From the NCBI GenBank assembly GCA_964016885.1, contig OZ024757.1, forward strand, positions 40,362,001 to 40,426,000: a DNA stretch of 64,000 nt, read 5' to 3'. The position numbers were made by a program, and so were the translations under genes. Under the pieces are notes generated by a model. The model searched no databases and had not been told where the DNA came from. It worked only from the letters and a program-made list of their open reading frames with translations. Of this stretch, positions 4,782-56,794 are shown in pieces (within the stretch, counting starts at the first letter, position 1; each line of letters starts with the position of its first letter). This stretch comes from Eledone cirrhosa. Lineage: Eukaryota.

Positions 4782-5109
4782 ATATTAATTCAAAATATTA
4801 ACAAAAATAGACATTCATGTGATCAAGTATATTTTATTATACATATTTCAGAGGTACTGAGCTAACTTCAACAGTAGGTCCTCATCCGATAAAATTAGAT
4901 GATGCATGACATACCCTGACATAGTAGATGGTTAAGATTCATTCATGACTGAATCTTAACCATCTACTATGCCACGGTATGTCATGCATCAACTTATTTT
5001 ATCTGATGAGGACGGTCTGTTGAAGTTAACTCAGTACCTTTGAAATATGTATAATAAAATATACTTGATCACATGAATGTCTATTTATGTTAATATTTTG
5101 AATTAATAT
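4782..5109. repeat. ~328-bp imperfect palindrome (fold-back) adjoining (TA)n and containing a hammerhead motif in each arm
   Basis: Arms are symmetric about tcatga at 4943-4948; atattaattcaaaatattaac pairs with gttaatattttgaattaatat. Confidence 0.9.
4996..5060 (+). ncRNA. Type I hammerhead ribozyme motif (family A)
   Basis: attttat-CTGATGA-[ggacggtctg...cagtaccttt]-GAAA-tatgta-TA-ataaaat; 7-bp stem I. The mirror copy at 4831-4895 (-) has a mutated core, CGGATGA. Confidence 0.75.
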
Positions 5110-6062: not shown

Positions 6063-6227
6063 ATATATGGAGTAAGAAACAGTAAATCGTGTGTCTAATA
6101 TTACGAGGGTTGAAGAACCATATTTGTTTGAAATATTTAACCATGAAGCAGACAGGGTTTCAGTATGAGTCAACTCTAACTTTCATTTATATATATATAT
6201 TTATGAATATATATATATATATATTTA

Positions 6228-6292
<65 letters not shown>

Positions 6293-6341
6293 GAATATAT
6301 ATATATATATATTTATGAATATATATATATATATATATTTA

Positions 6342-6411
<70 letters not shown>

Positions 6412-6557
6412 TATATATATATATATATATATATGAATATAGACATAGAATATTCGAAAATATTCTGTATGTTTATAATAAACATTTTGAAGACCTAATC
6501 GCTATAGAATAGAATACGTCACGTATTACAATTAGATTCTCGATAAAAGCAAGGGAA

Positions 6558-6600
6558 GTAATCTACGCGTTTCATTCTTATTAGAAATCATCAGGACTAC
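6558..6600 (-). ncRNA. Minimal type I hammerhead ribozyme (mirror copy)
   Basis: Reverse complement of 6996-7038. Confidence 0.85.
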
Positions 6601-6995
6601 ATATCCAGTGCTTTTATCGAGAATGACACAGCTAGAGACTTATAGAATACTTAGCTGTGTACAGGAACTGGTTTGAAAGAGCGGTTGCCGGTCCGGCAGA
6701 AATTAGAAATTGGAATAAATGCTCTGAAATAGCGATATATATGTGAATATAGACATAGAATATTCGAAAATATTCTGTATGTTTATAATAAACATTCAAA
6801 ATGTTTATTATAAACATACAGAATATTTTCGAATATTCTATGTCTATATTCACATATATATCGCTATTTCAGAGCATTTATTCCAATTTCTAATTTCTGC
6901 CGGACCGGCAACCGCTCTTTCAAACCAGTTCCTGTACACAGCTAAGTATTCTATAAGTCTCTAGCTGTGTCATTCTCGATAAAAGCACTGGATAT

Positions 6996-7038
6996 GTAGT
7001 CCTGATGATTTCTAATAAGAATGAAACGCGTAGATTAC
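6996..7038 (+). ncRNA. Minimal type I hammerhead ribozyme
   Basis: gtagtc-CTGATGA-t ttct aata agaa t-GAAA-cgcg-TA-gattac; palindromic ACGCGT stem III; predicted cleavage after A7032. Confidence 0.88.
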
Positions 7039-7681
7039 TTCCCTTGCTTTTATCGAGAATCTAATTGTAATACGTGACGTATTCTATTCTATAGCGATTA
7101 GGTCTTCAAAATGTTTATTATAAACATACAGAATATTTTCGAATATTCTATGTCTATATTCACATATATATCGCTATTTCAGAGCATTTATATATATATA
7201 TATTTATATATATATATAGAGAGAGAGAGAAAGTGAAGGAGGGAGAGAGAGAGGGAGAGAGAGAGAGAGAGAAAGAGATTTATGAATGCATGTATGTATG
7301 TATGTATACATACATACATACACATATATAATCAGATCTGCTACACATCATAAAACTTATAATCAATAAAAGTCAACGATATAGAGAAAAAAAGATTGTT
7401 GTCATCTTCCAATTTTCCTGTATTTCGTTATTGGAAATTATAATTTCTTCTATTTCATTGAAAAATACAATCAAAATAATAAAGAAGCGCGGGGAAGGGG
7501 GGGGGGGGGGGGCTGGATGAGAGGGAGGTTTAGAAATTAAAGAAATCTTCGTTTATATTGAAGGAGCTGTTATCTTAACCAATGAACGAGATATGGGAAA
7601 ACAGTTTGACATATTGAAGATTAAAAAACACACAAAAACTAATGTAAACATTCCGGTTTTATTACAAAAGAAATGTATTGT

Positions 7682-8134: not shown

Positions 8135-8775
8135 TCATCATCATTTTACGTCCGCTTTTCCCTGCTTGCAAGGGTGGGACGGGTCTTATTCAGCACAGCA
8201 TCTCTCCACTCGTCACGGTCCCTCGTCATCTCCACCGTGAGCTTCATTGATCTGAGGTCTGTTCTCACCACCTCCGCCCATGTTTTTCGTGGTCTACCTC
8301 TACCACGTCTTCCTTCAACTGGCATTTCCTGGCACTTCTTCACCCATCGGTCATCCTCCATGTGCATCACATGTCCATACCACCTCAGTCTCCTCTCCCG
8401 TACACTACATTCTATCCCTCTCAGACACAGTTTCTCTCTCAACACATTTATGCTGGGTCGTTCACGCACATTTACACTGCACATCCAACGGAGCATGCTT
8501 GCCTCATTTCTCTCCAGCCGTCCCATATCCTCTGCGGTTGCTGCCCATGTCTCACTACCATGCAGCATCGCGATCCTCACACAGGCATCATACAACCGGC
8601 CTTTCGTACGCAGGGAGAAACCCTTCTTCGTCAACAGAGGAAGCAGCTCCCTAAACTTCTTCCAACCCGTCCTTATTCTAGATACTATGGCCTCAGAACA
8701 CCCTCCTCCCATGCTAATCTGATCTCCTAGGTACCGGAAGCTATCCACCACTTCTATAGCGCCCTCTCGCATTTG
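8131..8775 (-). mobile_element. 5'-truncated RTE-clade LINE; open ORF for the C-terminal RT region, with a (TGA)n tail
   Basis: ORF 8146-8772: VDSFRYLGD...[16 protein letters not shown]...MLHGSETW...RLRWYGHV...[12 protein letters not shown]. The 3' tail is taaaatgatgatgatga, and both flanks are (TA)n. Confidence 0.92.
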
Positions 8776-8824
8776 AAAATATATATATATATATATATAT
8801 ATGTACGTATATATATATGTGTAC

Positions 8825-8880
<56 letters not shown>

Positions 8881-21089: not shown

Positions 21090-21900
21090 CACACTCAGAC
21101 ACATACAGATATATATTAACACATACACACACATATAGAAGCACATAACATACAGATATATATTAATACATACACACATATAGAGACACAGACACATACA
21201 GATATATCTTAACACATACACACATATAGAGACACAGACACATACAGATATATATTAACACATACACACACATATAGAAGCACATAACATACAGATATAT
21301 ATTAATACATACACACATATAGAGACACAGACACATACAGATATATCTTAACACATACACACATATAGAGACACAGACACATACAGATATATATTAACAC
21401 ATACACACATATAGAGAGACTCAGACACATACAGATATATATTAACACATACACACACATATAGAGAGACTCGGACACATACAGATATATATTAACACAT
21501 ACACACACATATAGAGACACAGACACATACAGATATATATTAATACATACACACACATAGAGAGACACCGACACATACAGATATATATTAATACATACAC
21601 ACACATAGAGAGACACCGACACATACAGATATATATTAATACATACACACATATAGAGAGAGACACCGACACATACAGATATATATTAATACATACACAC
21701 ATATAGAGAGACACCGACACATACAGATATATATTAATACATACACACATATAGAGAGACACATACACATACAGATATATATTAATACATACACACACAT
21801 AGACCTTAACACATACACCCATACACAGACACACAGACATATACAGATATATATTAATACATACACACACATGGACCTTAACACATACACCCATACACAG
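21090..21900. repeat. ~40-46-bp minisatellite (agacacatacagatatatattaatacatacacacatatagag)
   Basis: About 18 units visible. Confidence 0.9.
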
Positions 21901-22754
21901 ACACACAGACGCATACAGATACACACACACACAGGCGTTAACACATACACTCATACAGACACACACGCACACCTACAGATATACATTAACACATACACCA
22001 ATAGAGAGACACACACATGCATTAACATATACACACATACAAAGACACAAACCCGCATACACATATACATAAATACACACATACACACACACAGATACAG
22101 CCATACAAAGACAGATAGGGACACACATACACAGGCAGACATTAACACATATACCCATATAGAGACACACACAAAGACAGGCACACAGATAAACACACAT
22201 AGAGAGACACACACACACATATAGAGACACACACAGACTCGCACAGGCATTCACACAAAAACTCTGACACACACACAGATGTAGCCACACACAGCGACAT
22301 ACAGACACACACAGTGACACACACACACACTCCCACAACGACACACAGACATAGCCACTCACTGGTTATTATTAATCTTCATATAAATTATGTGTATTTA
22401 TTTTAATTTTATGAGAAAAAATATTTAACACAGCTAATATCATTTAAATACATTTTTTATCAGTATCATCATAATCATCATCATCTTTATCATCATCATC
22501 ATCACTATCGTCATCATCATCATTGTTATCGTCATCATCAATATCATAATCATCGGTATCACCATTATCATCATCAACATCAACGTCATCATTGAGGTTA
22601 CGGAACGGAGTATTGGAAAGTTACGCATCAAAGGGGCTATTCATATGAAGAGTTTTGAAATAAATTATTAATAACAAATTAAAGATACATGCTGTCGACT
22701 GCGCATGTTATCTTTCTACTGACCGACTTCTAAAAAGCCACAGGTCGTAAAATA

Positions 22755-23316
22755 ACGCTCCTCGGGCAAATTTCCCCTCGTTTGAAAAAGGTATTTAACC
22801 CCGAAATATGAGAATTAAGCTACATCTTCTTATTTTGTTTCTCCTTACTTTTCTCTACTCTAGTTTTAACATTAGATTTCTTATTTTCATTGCAGTGGGT
22901 TTCCCTAAACTTTCTTCACTAGGAATAATTTATCACCGCTCTTAAAATAGGGCTCCTCGCGCAAAATTTCCCCTCGTTTTAGAAAGTTATTTAACCCCAA
23001 AAAATAAGTTAGATCTTCCCATTTTGTTTGTCCTTATTTTACTGAAGTCCAGTTTTTACATTGCATTTCTTATTTGCATTGCAGTGGGTTTCCCTAAACT
23101 TTCTTTACTAGGAATAATTCATCACCGCTCTTAAAATAGGGCTCCTCGCGCAAAATTTCTCATCGTTTGAGAAAGGTATTTAACCCCCAAAAATAAGTTA
23201 GATCTTCCCATTTTGTTTGTCCTTATTTTACTCAAGTCCAGTTTTAACATTGCATTTCTTATTTGCAATGCAGTGGGTTTCCCTAAACTTTCTTCACTAG
23301 GAATAATTTATTACCG
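22755..23316. repeat. Tandem repeat, ~190-bp unit x3
   Basis: gctcctcg(g/c)gcaaa starts near 22757, 22951 and 23141; cagtgggtttccctaaactttct occurs three times. Confidence 0.9.
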
Positions 23317-28249: not shown

Positions 28250-28610
28250 GTTTCAGAAGATCCCGTTAATGGTGAAAGCAGCGATTCGTTGCTTGCTCTA
28301 CGGGTTTGTGTGTAAATTTGTCGATCGACTTTCATCAAATCGGACCGAGAAAACAATGTTTTCGTTGGTCTTTCCAATTGCTAATACTATCTATCGGTCG
28401 AAACTCCAGGTAGAAATGAAGTGTCTTGCTCAAGGACATAACGCATCACCCGGTCCAGGAATCGATTTGACAACCTCACGATTGCGAATCCAGTTCTCTA
28501 ACCAATCAGCCACGCGCCTTCACTATGTTTTATATATATAAATATATTATATATCTCGAATACTTATCGAGCCCTCTTCGGATTTAGACTTCACATTAAT
28601 CATTACTATA
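28249..28610 (+). repeat. Family D repeat with a degenerate hammerhead, interrupted by a SINE-containing insert
   Basis: agtttcagaagatcccgttaatggtgaaagcagcgattcgttgc... resumes near 28560 as cttatcgagccctcttcggatttagacttc, matching 39790-39940. Confidence 0.65.
28413..28523 (-). mobile_element. tRNA-derived SINE head with a CORE-like motif
   Basis: Minus strand: gtgaaggcgcgtggctgattggttagag...tgtccttgagcaagacacttcatttc. Similar heads at 29853 (+), 40318 (+), 59836-59911 (-) and 62288 (+). Confidence 0.75.
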
Positions 28611-30874
28611 TATATATTTGCAAATCACGATTTGCTGTTTGGTATAGTTGATAATTGGGAAAAGGATGACTGTCACTAAGTTACCTTCAAAGTGATGTAC
28701 AAAACATGATTATAATGTTACTATATATTCAAAGTTGAAAGATATTGTTTTAGCAATATGTAGAGAACAAGAGCTAGATAAGTGATTTCTAGAGAAAGAG
28801 ATAAAGTTTCGGTCCCCAAACGCAGCAGACATTTCGAGTATTCTCACGTATCAAATACTAAAACAAAACAGATTTGCAAGTGGGTAAACAGGAAAAAAAC
28901 TACTACTAATAATAATAATTTCGATATTGATGAAAGATATAAATAACTAAGAGACGTCCATTCCCCAGATCAAACACCAACATTGTGGTTTCAATTCCCG
29001 TTTGGGGAAATGTAAGTTCGTATATACAGCTAATGTTCTCTGGTAAAAATATACGAACGTTCCATTTGCTCATATCGTTTAAGTTGTTAGAAACTTGAAG
29101 CTTTGAGATAATCAATCGAAAAATAGATAGAGTTTAGTGAAACAACTCCCAAAGCAAACATTTTATCTATTATTAGTATTTTAGTTGTCTTAGTTTTATT
29201 GTTTGCTTAGTTTTAGTGTGTGCCGACATATTACATAAAGTACTTTCGAAACAATAGAATGTAGAAAAGAAAGGATGCGCCCTAGATATCTAATTCCCAC
29301 AACGCAAGACTTGATTATACACATCTGAGCGCAGCTTTGTGAGTCTTGGCTGTGTTCAAAGTATTGTTTTTTTTTTATCTGGTTTTCTATTTTATCGAAC
29401 TTACTCGATGTAACACACGATTAGTCTTTTTTTTTTACATATAAAAATGAGAAAAATCATCGCTAGAACAGACGTTAAAACAGCTAAATGCTGTGAAAGC
29501 CAGCGATGGGGAAATATGCCTCAGAAGATAGAGACCAGCGGCCAGTGGTCAACAGAGAGACAATCAACAAGGTGAGTGACAGGCAGATGAAATATAATGC
29601 CTCAGAGGACATAGACCAGCGGCCAGTGGTCAACAGAGAGACAATCCACAAGGTGGGTGACATACAAATGAAATATAGAAATGATTGAAAGAGGAGGAGT
29701 TCATGGAGAAGGGGGTTGGTACACAGAAGTGACTGGAAGAGGAAATAAAGAAAGGTGATGTACAACACAACTTTACACACACACCCATCTTCATCCTCAT
29801 CAGCTCTCATGCCAGCAACATGGTTTCGCACAATATTTTGTTTTTAACGTATGTGAAGGCGAGTGGCTAAATGGTTAGAGAGTTCAGTTCACAATCTTAA
29901 GGTTATGAATTCAACCCGGGGATCGAACAATTAAAATAGAAGTCATTTACGGATGATTGATTTAATCGATTTTTTCCTTTGCCCCTCTTGTGCTTAAAGT
30001 AGGAACCTTTATTTTCATTGATCAGTGACCACCAAAGTTCTAATAGAGATGTAAGGTTTGCTGTTGGGATATATGCAACATAACCTAGGCATTTAGAACC
30101 TGGCGGCAAATATTCTTTAGAAAAGAAGAATCTATTGTGTAAATATATATTCATATGGACTGTCTAAATAATAGACAGGATGGTCACAGCTGGAGTGACG
30201 ATAGCTATAATATGTCCGCTCAATAAGATAAACACTGGAACATATCAACGATATATTTTCAAATAGATGATCTAAATTTCTAAACAACATCAAAATCTCA
30301 AAGCTCAGATAATAATATAAATATAGTTTATTGGAAATTATTTCAGCTCATAAAGAAAACGTTGTAACATCTGTTTTAGTTCTGAAATAGTCTTTATTGG
30401 TCTTTATTGGAGAATTCCATCCAAGCAATAGAGAATTTTCCATTCATTAAAGCTCTCAGGGCAACGTTCAGGAGAATCTTTATAAACAGACTAGGCATTG
30501 TCTATTGATTGTGCTGTGGTATATCACATAGAGTTTTATAGAGAATGTTCTGTACTGTTGTCTCTTCTCGTTTCATAATGCAACACTGACGTGTGTTAAG
30601 ATACAAACAATATGTGTATGTGTGTGTGGATGTGTGTGTGGATGTATATATGTGTGTTGGTGTATAGATGTGTATAAGTGTGTATGTATATGTGTAGAGG
30701 TGCGTATGTGTTGTGTAGGTGGTGATGATAATATTGTGTATATATTTTTCTATAGATATCTGTGGAGAAGGTTTCTCTTCTCTATGGGCAAATATTGAGT
30801 GAGTGTTTGTGAGTAAAGTAGGTGTGATTACTACACACATACACACACATGCTCATATATACACACACGCACAT

Positions 30875-33840: not shown

Positions 33841-33903
33841 ATATAAGATCCCGTTAAGGGTGAAAGCAGCGATTCTTTGCTTAAACTTTAATCTGTTATT
33901 TTA

Positions 33904-33934
<31 letters not shown>

Positions 33935-39731: not shown

Positions 39732-39736
<5 letters not shown>

Positions 39737-39940
39737 TTTATTAAAATAACAGATTAAAGTTTAAGCAAAGAATCGCTGCTTTCAACCTTAACCGTTAAGG
39801 GTGAAAGCAGCGATTCTTTGCTTAAACATTAATCTGTTACTTTAATAAATATTTGCTCTACGGTTCTTATATATTTGATATATATTTATCCTTATCGAGC
39901 CCTCTTTGGATTTTAGTCTTCAAATTTATTATTATTACTA
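39732..39940 (+). repeat. Family D repeat with a 5' fold-back (palindrome 39732-39854), in (TA)n
   Basis: aaatatttattaaaataacagattaaagtttaagcaaagaatcgctgctttca / tgaaagcagcgattctttgcttaaacattaatctgttactttaataaatattt. Confidence 0.85.
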
Positions 39941-40535: not shown

Positions 40536-40725
40536 ATAGGAAAAGAGTCAGGACCCCGACTGCTGTGCTCCAGCCGTTTCGACAGCTAGATCCGAACTAG
40601 CAGTCGAGACGGCCGGAGCTCAGCCGTAGGGGTCCTGACTCTTTTCCTATTACTCACTCTACTACACTAAGTATCGAGTACTCTGGTGTGTTATGGCCCC
40701 CCTGGTTCCTTACCACACCTTCTTT
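40536..40725 (-). repeat. Hairpin-terminated repeat (115-bp hairpin at 40536-40650)
   Basis: Reverse complement of 1-163 and of 5205-5336. Confidence 0.8.
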
Positions 40726-49386: not shown

Positions 49387-49388
<2 letters not shown>

Positions 49389-49640
49389 AAGGCGGGTAAA
49401 ATTCCCGAGATCCATGGACGAGTTCTCTCCAGCGGTCTCTGTCCCTCATTATCGCTGCCATGTCCTGCGTCTCCAACAGACCAGTGTCTGTCCTTAGGGC
49501 ATCAACATACGTTAACCTTGGTCTTCCTCTTCTAGTGTGTCCATGTAGGGGCTCCCAAAGGAGCACTGAATGCAATGTCAACTCTGGATGTCGGTGAGCA
49601 TGTCCAGCTAACCTCATTCTCCTCTGTGTCACTTTTGAGC
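49387..49640 (-). mobile_element. RTE/RTEX-like LINE 3' fragment
   Basis: KVTQRRMRLAGHAHRHPEL...LLWEPLHGHTRRGRPRLTYVDAL...MRDRDRWRELV. Confidence 0.85.
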
Positions 49641-49657
49641 TGACATACATACCCACG

Positions 49658-49695
<38 letters not shown>

Positions 49696-49746
49696 AGACT
49701 CTCCCGTCGATTCGACGTATGAGGGCTCCACAGTCTTTCCAGTTGT

Positions 49747-49778
<32 letters not shown>

Positions 49779-51599
49779 GTATATCACCTCAGTCTCTTGG
49801 TCATTCCTTCGCTATCTCCATCTACTACATATATGTCCAAGAGAGCTGGTTGGTCGACGAATTAACTACAACAACAACAACAACAACAACAATTTATCTC
49901 TTGTATTAACCTTGTAATCCGGTTCCTTCCTTATCATCCGCGATTTCTTGCCTCCTGCTACACCCGCTACATCACACCACCTCACACCCACCACTTCCCC
50001 CAACCCCTCCTCCCCCCTTCACAATATTCTCACCGATTTTATAACTTTTCACACTAATTGTTTTATTGTTGCTGTTGTTGTTGGTGGTGGCGGTGTTGCT
50101 GTTGTTGTTGGTGGTGGCGGTGTTGTTGGTGGTGGCGTTGTTGTTGTTGCTGTTGTTGTTATTGGTGGTGTTGCTGTTGTTGTTGGTGGTAGTGTTGTTG
50201 TTGGTGGTGGCGGTGTTGTTGTTGTTGCTGTTGTTGTTGTTGTTGTTATTGGTGGTGTTGCTGATGTTGTTGGTGGTGATGTTGTTGTTGTTGTTGTTGT
50301 TGTTGCTGCTGTTCGTGTTGGCATTGCTTTTAGTCAATGCTTCTCTGGTGTTTGCGGCATTTTTTATGCATGTGTGTATATGTGTGGTGTGTGGTGTGTG
50401 TGTATGTGTGTGTGGTGTGTGGTGCGTGTGTATATGTGTGTGGTGTGTGGTGTGTGTGTATATATGTGTGTGTGGTGAGTGGTGTTTGTGTATATATATG
50501 TGTGTGATTATATATGTGTGTAGGGTGTGTATGCATGTGTGCGTATATGTGTGTGAATATATGTGTGTAGGATGTGTATTAATATGTGTGCTTGTGTGCG
50601 GTGTGTGTATGTGTGAGTGTGTGCTCATAAGAGTGTTCATGATTGTGTTTGTTGGTGTGTATGTGCATGTGTGCGTGTGGATATATGTGTGTAGACATAT
50701 GTGTAGATGGGCATGTGTGTATGTGTGCGTGTGGATATATGTGTGTAGACATATGTGTAGATGGGCATGTATGTATGTGTGCGTGTGGATATATGTGTGT
50801 GAACATATGTGTAGATGGACTTGTGTGTGTACGTGTATGTGTGAGCATGAGTGAGGACATATATGTATATGGGCATGTGTGTGCGTGTGTGTGAGTAGGT
50901 GTGTGGACATATATGTATATGGACGTGTATGTGTGTGTGTGCATGTGTGTGGATGTATGTGTATATGAGCATGTGTGTGTGTATGAGCACGTGTGTGAAC
51001 ATGTGTGTATATGGACGTGTGTGTGTGTGTGCATGAGCATGTGTGTGGACATATGTGTATATGGGTGTATGTGTGTGCGTGTGTGTGTGTGTATGTATGT
51101 GTGAGGATGTCTGTGTGTATGTGTGTGCATGTGTGTGTGTGTGTGAGGATGTGTGTGTGTGTATGGTTGTGTGAGGATGTGTGTGCGTGTGTATGTGTGT
51201 GTGTGTGCATGTGCGTGTGTGTGTGTGAGGATGTGCGTGTGTTTATGTTTGTGTGTGCATGTGTGTGTGTGTGTAGCCATGTTTGTGTAAGTGTATGTGT
51301 GTTCATATGTGTGTGTGTATGTGTGTGCATGTGTGTGTGTGTATGTATGTGTGTGTGTATGACCGGCTATAGTAATAACCACTGCAGTCTATTTTGCTAT
51401 AGCTTATCACAGTATCGCCATGTCTACTGATAACATTCTCAATACCAAACTCTACAGACGTTCAAGCAATATAACTAATGGAGGAAGGGGGTAGGTCCGT
51501 TGTTAAGGGCTGGAGGTCTAGGGGTTATTGTAGTCGCGCCCTACTTTTATCACCACTACTTTCAACACCACCTCGGCCACATCATTAACTTCACTATTT

Positions 51600-56349: not shown

Positions 56350-56420
56350 TATTTTATCTGATGAGAACGCAGATATCATGCCATGATGATATTTGTTTTT
56401 GAAATGCGCATAATAAAATA
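56350..56420 (+). ncRNA. Type I hammerhead ribozyme motif (family A)
   Basis: tattttat-CTGATGA-gaac gcagatatcat..atgatatttgt tttt-GAAA-tgcgca-TA-ataaaata; 8-bp stem I, palindromic ATGCGCAT stem III. Confidence 0.85.
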
Positions 56421-56450: not shown

Positions 56451-56505
<55 letters not shown>

Positions 56506-56794
56506 ACATTAAAGTTTAAGCAAAGATCGCTGCTTTCACCCTTGTTAATGGTGATGATGTTGGTATCGGTGATGATGGTAATGTTGATGGCGATAATGAT
56601 GATGCTGGTGGTGATAATGTCTATGGTGATAATGATGCTGATGATGGGGACGATGATGATGGTGATAATGATGGTAACTATGGTAACGATGGTGATGATG
56701 ATGATTTTGGTTGTTTCCCACACAACTGTAATCCGAGACCAATTCCACCAAATTTTTCAGCCTTCAAAGAATCCATACAAAGACAATTACATTG

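Follow-up and report, generated by a model that had tools for sequence, protein, structure and literature searches.

A likely solo copy of a new 310-nt non-LTR retrozyme-type family bearing the insertion marks of PLEs

Introduction

Non-LTR retrozymes, as characterised in the main texts of two reports, are multi-copy, non-coding repeats with units of 150–450 bp, a G+C content below 50%, a type I hammerhead ribozyme and a predicted self-paired circle (PMC7229834; bioRxiv 10.64898/2026.07.22.740005), all of which are shared by the repeat described here. The canonical metazoan type I ribozyme is described as having a helix I of 6 bp, a helix II of 4 bp and a helix III of 1–2 bp with a palindromic loop, and as requiring a second copy for good cutting (PMC4209133). 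Axolotl retrozymes cut better as dimers (PMC7229834), and no cleavage was seen in eight of nine dimers predicted for Xenopus retrozymes (bioRxiv 10.64898/2026.07.22.740005). In the latter preprint, a retrozyme is called ‘active’ when two consecutive units each carry a complete ribozyme; according to its main text, the preprint's test did not cover non-vertebrates (bioRxiv 10.64898/2026.07.22.740005).

Insertions of Penelope-like elements (PLEs) are marked by an adjacent inverted and 5′-truncated copy, a one-sided tail of 30–40 bp and a bias towards microsatellites (PMC8557442, PMC3846280, PMC11167929). The palindromes at their junctions have been read as the result of self-priming (PMC3846280), and the tail has been tied to two start sites of reverse transcription (PMC11167929). 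In one PLE, insertion did not need cleavage, and unprocessed RNA was the main template (PMC11167929). The minimal ribozyme of PLEs has a helix II of 7–8 bp, a helix I of 4–5 bp and an extra base before G10.1–C11.1 (PMC4209133). From co-occurrence and pLTR phylogeny, PLEs have been proposed as the mobilising partner of retrozymes, the mechanism being left open (PMC7229834, bioRxiv 10.64898/2026.07.22.740005). The main texts of these two reports give no account of inverted copies, palindromes, tails or microsatellite targets on retrozymes. Our literature search, from which most subscription papers and the supplements of both reports fell out of scope, returned no paper on such insertion marks on retrozymes and none on cephalopod retrozymes.

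A 310-nt unit with a canonical type I hammerhead

The window is the whole 64,000-nt stretch of Eledone cirrhosa DNA that was analysed. It contains a repeat with the following unit and ribozyme features.

6797..7106, plus strand: monomer unit, 310 nt, non-coding, 34% G+C
6996..7038, plus strand: type I hammerhead (descriptor scan, folding and Rfam HH9 alignment)
6558..6600, minus strand: second hammerhead, in the inverted arm
6996–7001/7033–7038, plus strand: stem I, 6 bp including one G-U
7002–7008 and 7023–7026, plus strand: catalytic core segments
7009–7012/7019–7022, plus strand: stem II, 4 bp, closing a 6-nt loop (7013–7018), U.U at the base
7010–7013/7018–7021, plus strand: alternative stem II with a 4-nt loop
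7026..7031, plus strand: stem III, a palindromic 6 nt by which two ribozymes are predicted to join as a double hammerhead
6988..6995, plus strand: 5′ side of two internal loops and a 3-bp helix (6990–6992/7040–7042) capping stem I
7039..7044, plus strand: 3′ side of the internal loops, with U7039 (position 1.7) as the candidate tertiary-contact U

The 310-nt period is backed by a direct repeat of 87 nt (6795–6881 = 7105–7191), and the longest ATG frame on the circularised unit is 30 aa. The descriptor scan of the window located the hammerhead motif at 7002–7032 on the plus strand and 6564–6594 on the minus strand, and cleavage is predicted after A7032. Judged from its sequence, the architecture of the unit's ribozyme is the canonical metazoan type I form. 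It shares with Rfam Hammerhead_HH9 (RF02275) the core, the 6-bp stem I, the 4-bp stem II with a 6-nt loop and the internal loop, and aligns over the whole model; however, stem III is cut down to a palindrome, and the 19.7 bits of the alignment fall far short of the gathering score, 52. At the gathering score, Rfam has no match in the 64-kb window, and the exact 20–21-nt motif had no match in the prokaryote genomes and viral contigs searched.

The first-pass annotation, which was made from the letters alone, had placed an internal loop of stem I for a tertiary contact with loop II. The candidate residues agree with this placement, as U7039 comes after pair 1.6, A7018 is the last base of the 6-nt loop II, and each has its counterpart in the consensus of Rfam HH9. 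The conserved Hoogsteen pair of hammerheads is formed by residues at these two positions, U1.7 and the last A of loop II (PMC2553840, PMC11875169), and a stem I–loop II contact between U7039 and A7018 thus fits the sequence. The annotation had also extended stem I by a 16-bp helix beyond a single internal loop; this helix is present, but two internal loops and the 3-bp helix intervene.

The closest described ribozymes are HHR_Amex1 and HHR_Amex2 of axolotl and newt, whose units are approximately 330–350 nt and whose cleavage is dimer-dependent (PMC7229834). HHR_Amex1 shares with the present ribozyme a one-pair helix III and a palindromic tetraloop, and HHR_Amex2 shares the U.U at the base of helix II (PMC7229834). 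Unlike in those two, both weak features are combined here in one ribozyme and a natural variant restores the pair; the likeness is one of described features.

In fold models, which leave out tertiary contacts and Mg2+, the active fold of the monomer lies 6.7 kcal/mol above its minimum. When two 89-nt domains are cofolded, the double hammerhead is the predicted minimum (−68.7 versus −62.6 kcal/mol for two monomers), and the ribozyme core behaves likewise (−20.7 for the double form versus −14.6). In the full 620-nt tandem, however, the forced double hammerhead is predicted to lie 6.4 kcal/mol above the minimum, which we count against the reading preferred below.

On the minus strand of the unit, a ribozyme was sought and rejected, the only core-like 7-mer having neither stem II nor GAAA in place. 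Hammerhead viroids (Avsunviroidae) carry ribozymes in both polarities and have no DNA counterpart. The present unit is like them in size and in its branched predicted fold, whereas its ribozyme is of one polarity and it is an integrated, high-copy DNA repeat. A viroid was therefore rejected on these two grounds, and of the earlier alternative ‘viroid-type or retrozyme’, only the second term is retained.

Fold of the unit and variation among its copies

The unit had been described as extensively self-complementary, with six named helices. An exhaustive listing of perfect inverted repeats of at least 6 bp within 6797–7106 recovers all six where they had been put, along with a seventh.

6801–6808/6810–6817, plus strand: palindrome, 8 bp, 1-nt spacer, adjoining the inversion centre (pair probability in the circle ~0.44)
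6820–6827/6832–6839, plus strand: hairpin, 8 bp, 4-nt loop (repeat listing and pair probabilities)
6860–6867/7091–7098, plus strand: long-range helix, 8 bp (pair probability in the circle ~0.6)
6898–6903/6905–6910, plus strand: palindrome, 6 bp, 1-nt spacer (a 5-bp hairpin as RNA)
6936–6944/6962–6970, plus strand: hairpin, 9 bp
6972–6987/7045–7060, plus strand: helix of 16 bp closing the ribozyme domain 6972..7060
7069–7075/7077–7083, plus strand: palindrome, 7 bp, 1-nt spacer (a 6-bp hairpin as RNA), the helix missed at first

The linear 310-nt unit has a minimum free energy of −75.1 kcal/mol (z −5.54; none of 100 shuffles as good). The circularised unit, for which a z-score against shuffles had been suggested as the check, reaches −67.8 kcal/mol (z −4.23; 1 of 200). 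The fraction of paired bases is 0.60 compared to 0.54 in shuffles, a value reached by 14 of 200 of them; the observation of self-complementarity is confirmed, this fraction telling against the word ‘extensively’. The ribozyme domain alone (6972–7060) has z −6.5, and the unit minus the hammerhead domain has z −3.0. Five perfect inverted repeats of at least 8 bp occur in the unit (p 0.005), and the 16-bp helix arose in none of 5000 shuffles; helices of at least 7 bp are not in excess (7 versus 4.0 expected, p 0.11). Among 30 comparison tiles of 310 nt, sampled from the 62 high-complexity tiles of 206 in the window and tested with 20 shuffles each, 29 had z between −2.6 and +1.2 and one reached −6.1.

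The minus strand is equally folded (z −5.43 linear, −5.14 circular). Of 76 confident pairs on the plus strand, 67 also form on the minus strand, and G-U pairs number one on plus, where the sole confident one lies inside stem I, and six on minus. The fold score is thus silent on which strand, or which polymer, was selected. The unit contains three perfect palindromes with a 1-nt spacer (6801–6817, 6898–6910 and 7069–7083), compared to 0.28 expected (p 0.003). Such a spacer is too short for an RNA hairpin to close its innermost pair, and the three palindromes could help the RNA to dimerise or could serve as sites for proteins on DNA.

Variation was taken from sequencing run X1 (organism A), which is possibly from the same source as the window and so is not independent of it. 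Three variants reach at least 5% there (7009, 7016 and 7017). All of them leave the helices intact, and no two-sided compensatory change, the second test named by the first-pass annotation, is among them or was seen among the pieces listed. At 7009, T>A (approximately 20% of summed depth) puts a Watson–Crick pair in place of the U.U, and the predicted probability of stem II rises from 0.15 to 0.93. The other two, 7016 T>C (approximately 70%) and 7017 A>G (approximately 20%), lie in loop II and spare A7018. A rare loss of one base near 7143 (depth 91) shortens a hairpin arm. That the common variants spare the helices weakly supports constraint on an RNA fold, the sites being three.

The annotation's inference of selection for a compact RNA fold hence survives the shuffle test, and it gains nothing from compensatory change in run X1 or from a fold that is symmetric between strands. 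In a retrozyme-type repeat, most helices outside the ribozyme might instead be by-products arising at the DNA level, from template-switch palindromes or protein-binding palindromes, and not a selected RNA fold. The near-pure Watson–Crick helices forming on both strands, the number of 1-nt-spacer palindromes, the lack of compensatory change in the run X1 variants and the z of −6.1 attained by an inverted pair of an ordinary dispersed repeat all accord with such an origin. However, the 16-bp helix sits exactly so as to close the ribozyme, four other hairpins have high pair probabilities, and the helices are spared by all three common variants, a weak point with so few sites. Self-paired circles are, moreover, reported as usual for the class (PMC7229834). 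We consider a DNA-level origin of most helices quite improbable. Since a strong branched fold is expected of animal retrozymes, the fold itself is ordinary for the class.

The insertion locus

The repeat is inserted as a palindrome with arms of 372 bp, which the coordinates of the first-pass annotation omit and which is decisive for what this copy can do.

6795..7191, plus strand: right arm, 1.28 units, with the 87-nt terminal direct repeat, crossing the predicted cleavage site
6434..6796, minus strand: left arm, head-to-head inverted copy of 6800–7162, 1.17 units, identical over 363 nt
6795..6801, no strand: palindrome centre, with a 3-nt spacer (6797–6799) that is the unit's own sequence, two shared bases (6795–6796) and no foreign bases
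7163..7191, plus strand: one-sided tail, on the right arm only, 29 nt, or at most 37 nt if the left-end microhomology 6434–6441 is target
6188..6433, no strand: left target, interrupted (TA)n with six earlier copies of the 10-nt motif of the left junction
7192..7218, no strand: right target, (TA)n and then (AG)n

The match of the left arm extends to 6425 only through (TA)n, past a mismatch at 6433. The centre at 6795–6801 is likely the point at which fold-back priming occurred. Matches to miRNAs at the E-value level stem from this centre and were dismissed. Target-site duplications of non-LTR retrozymes exceed 4 bp when present; both flanks here are (TA)n.

The locus is a solo copy with one ribozyme per arm on opposite strands, and no two ribozymes lie on the same strand. 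In contrast to non-LTR retrozymes arranged as a tandem of two ribozyme-bearing units, it consists of a solo insertion of 1.28 units and an inverted partner. It thus lacks the two consecutive complete units of an ‘active’ element and fits the ‘monomer/solo’ class as the preprint's main text defines it (bioRxiv 10.64898/2026.07.22.740005); we accordingly do not file it as active. With one ribozyme per strand, this copy is unable to release a monomer by itself. A transcript across the locus is predicted to contain one sense ribozyme within a long perfect hairpin (−639 kcal/mol).

All three marks of PLE insertion are present, namely the inverted truncated copy, the one-sided tail of 29–37 nt and the (TA)n target. 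With EN+ PLE insertions the locus shares a partial tandem, a head-to-head inverted copy, a tail of approximately 30–40 bp, an AT-rich or microsatellite target and a hammerhead near the 3′ end (PMC3846280, PMC8557442, PMC11167929). Unlike those elements, it has no RT or GIY-YIG frame, and its ribozyme is of the canonical type. No PLE protein was found among the 82 of 107 window frames of higher complexity that were scanned. An autonomous PLE was rejected, as neither the element nor the frames scanned contain an RT/GIY-YIG ORF and the minimal ribozyme form does not match.

Both arms exceed one unit and cross the cleavage site, which a cut linear monomer would not allow; the template would thus have been either a circle or a multimer that had escaped cleavage. 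As unprocessed RNA can be the main template in a PLE (PMC11167929), the circle is one of two candidate templates.

Every one of these insertion marks is a PLE mark, and the unit may be only the terminal repeat (pLTR) stub of an autonomous PLE, in which case the locus would result from truncation of a PLE during insertion and there would be no 310-nt RNA of its own. Truncated PLEs are described with pairs of ribozymes on opposite strands 100–700 bp apart (PMC4209133). We regard this explanation as unlikely: the 310-nt period leaves no room for an ORF, and the ribozyme is canonical and not of the minimal PLE form. Further observations on either side come from the metagenome loci and from run X1.

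Metagenome and viral loci with the same core

The same ribozyme core was found at 25 metagenome loci (L031–L055), 16 of them distinct by 90-nt context; the search pattern forced two pairs of stem I, and several of these loci have short flanks. The contigs resemble eukaryotic DNA and carry minimal hammerheads of the PLE type; several have additional palindromes close by. A GIY-YIG-like motif, sought by a simple pattern, is absent from their frames of at least 90 aa. At 9 of the 16 distinct loci the ribozyme lies in an inverted arm, and the centre is upstream in all nine, as at the present locus. With the unit they share only the ribozyme core and one weak 25-nt match in L045, and are thus unable to give covariation for it.

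This recurrent layout bears on whether the palindrome might be an artefact, produced around a single copy by fold-back in the library or in assembly. The 363 nt of arm identity, as well as the lack of a strand-change joint among those listed for run X1, would be expected of an artefact. Nevertheless, the mirror ends at the ends of the element, its two end points do not coincide and the flanks are unlike each other; furthermore, the same layout recurs in those nine of 16 other hammerhead loci and in the older palindrome at 4782–5109 of the window. We find an artefact scarcely credible.

Single arms of these nine metagenome palindromes have z between −3.2 and +0.2, and the unit is more structured than all nine. 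It is thus more structured than ordinary PLE-type ends, which argues against its being a mere PLE stub.

Loose-core matches in viral contigs (30, of which 23 are distinct) have a stem I of 0–3 pairs and no inverted arm in any of the 23, and were treated as chance; in L025 and L029, stem II is plausible but stem I is missing.

Copies in sequencing runs

Of the 24 runs listed, 20 hold 63–94% of 32 sampled words of the unit, under 18 organism codes and in 17 studies. The words are almost absent from runs X21 and X22, which were left out, and no RNA run holding unit words is among the 24. Four runs (X1, X7, X8 and X23) were compared with 6838–7147.

Run X1 gave 638 contigs, of which 330 are at least 99% identical, 141 are 95–99%, 69 are 90–95% and 98 are below 90%. 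The family is high-copy and young in this run, contig depth yielding no copy number for it. Joints go back 310 and 307, and TA runs occur at two of the six loose ends listed. A 310 cycle in reads can arise from the 87-nt terminal repeat alone, and the joints and closed cycles may thus reflect this repeat as well as a true dimer. Some contigs, one of 646 letters, match only 6854–6918, which contains the tail sequence, at approximately 80–86% and then diverge; they are a candidate sister family or autonomous partner sharing a cis-element. A longer partner would diverge in this way if the unit were a PLE stub. Against a stub, the sole contig from X7 and the sole contig from X8 each close on themselves at 310.

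Those two contigs consist of 340 letters each (310 + 30, a closed cycle), with depths of 14 in X7 and 34 in X8, and no flanks, and carry only alleles that also segregate in X1. Run X23, raw Hi-C of organism B, has no mapping read among 12.8 million; if organism B is present in the run, this excludes at least 10 copies in a genome of up to 5 Gb, but not one copy. In a thin sample of the X1 pool, a haplotype at 20% would come out on top 15–25% of the time (phase inferred). Resident insertions should bring flanks along, whereas flankless cycles should result when traces of a very high-copy repeat are carried over. The matches under 17 other organism labels, for two of which contigs were examined, thus look like trace carry-over, and horizontal spread between species is unlikely.

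A viroid-like circle spreading horizontally and near-unchanged across many species would account for unit words in 20 of 24 runs under 18 organism codes and for two closed 340-letter contigs that are 99% alike. We hold it to be extremely unlikely, given that these contigs are shallow and flankless with only X1-segregating alleles, that thin sampling of X1 would put a 20% haplotype on top 15–25% of the time, that the ribozyme is of one polarity only, and that X23 lacks the unit, a result bearing on copies only if organism B is in the run. It is likewise very unlikely that the unit, as an animal retrozyme, additionally passes from species to species in the form of a self-contained circle that stays near-identical. 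If it did, the closed 310-nt cycles that lack flanks would represent either extrachromosomal copies or recent horizontal arrivals, and the element would be an animal counterpart of a viroid that retains a Penelope-dependent DNA phase. A very high-copy repeat is able to mimic horizontal transfer in public runs.

A scenario for the insertion

The helices, ribozyme motif, period, palindrome, tail, target and abundance were observed directly. Considering these results, we think it likely that the locus represents a new family of the non-LTR retrozyme type, as a young solo copy that PLE machinery inserted in trans, and propose the following scenario. Tandem copies at other sites in the genome would supply the transcripts, as knowledge of the family suggests. 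The palindromic stem III would bring two ribozymes together for cleavage after A7032, as folding predicts. The unit-length RNA would circularise, the 16-bp helix holding its ends together and the other hairpins compacting the remainder. A PLE protein would nick (TA)n, and reverse transcription would begin at the end of the tail, at 7191. The reverse transcriptase would copy more than one unit from the circle or from an uncleaved multimer. The cDNA would then fold back at 6795–6801 and produce the inverted arm, which would be joined to the target 29–37 nt short. Points against this reading are the lack of two same-strand ribozymes at the locus, the strand-symmetric fold, the low Rfam score, the absence of a PLE protein from the 82 frames scanned and of compensatory change from the run X1 pieces listed, as well as, in other elements, the Xenopus dimers that did not cleave and the PLE that inserts without cleavage.

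A single young copy thus displays, base for base, an inverted arm, a one-sided tail, a (TA)n target and copying of more than a unit across the cleavage site. It is thus a starting point for asking, over the whole family, whether PLE proteins insert retrozymes and whether they do so from circles or from uncleaved multimers. The T/A variant at 7009 is a natural switch for comparing cleavage as monomer and as dimer.

Other features of the window

An older head-to-head palindrome at 4782–5109, with arms 92.7% alike and its centre at 4945, adjoins (TA)n and is probably another PLE-type insertion. It has a hammerhead-like core at 5003 on the plus strand and a decayed one at 4888 on the minus strand, and its sequence is unrelated to the 310-nt unit. 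A solo hammerhead-like motif near (TA)n at 56350–56420 has an 8-bp stem I with the same letters as that of the 5003 motif, a long stem II and a palindromic stem III; two copies are predicted to cofold in a double-hammerhead-like form (−40.1 versus −29.2 kcal/mol). A short palindromic repeat adjoins (TA)n at 39732–39854, 33851–33911, 56491–56554 and 28263–28294, and may be the end of another PLE-like family.

The comparison tile with z −6.1 corresponds to 2246–2646, an inverted pair of a dispersed repeat of approximately 190 nt with approximately 20 full or partial copies in the window; ARAGORN found no tRNA in this repeat, which may resemble a cephalopod SINE. Two copies of a palindromic element of approximately 110 nt (63–163 and 40536–40650), 86–90% alike, are possibly a MITE. 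The minus-strand frames 8146–8874 and 49387–49788 have eukaryotic endonuclease–RT fragments as Atlas neighbours and no Pfam match, and are presumably the 3′ ends of RTE-type LINEs. Minisatellites occur at 22748–23316 (189 nt), 21096–21801 (48 nt) and 29516–29677 (81 nt).
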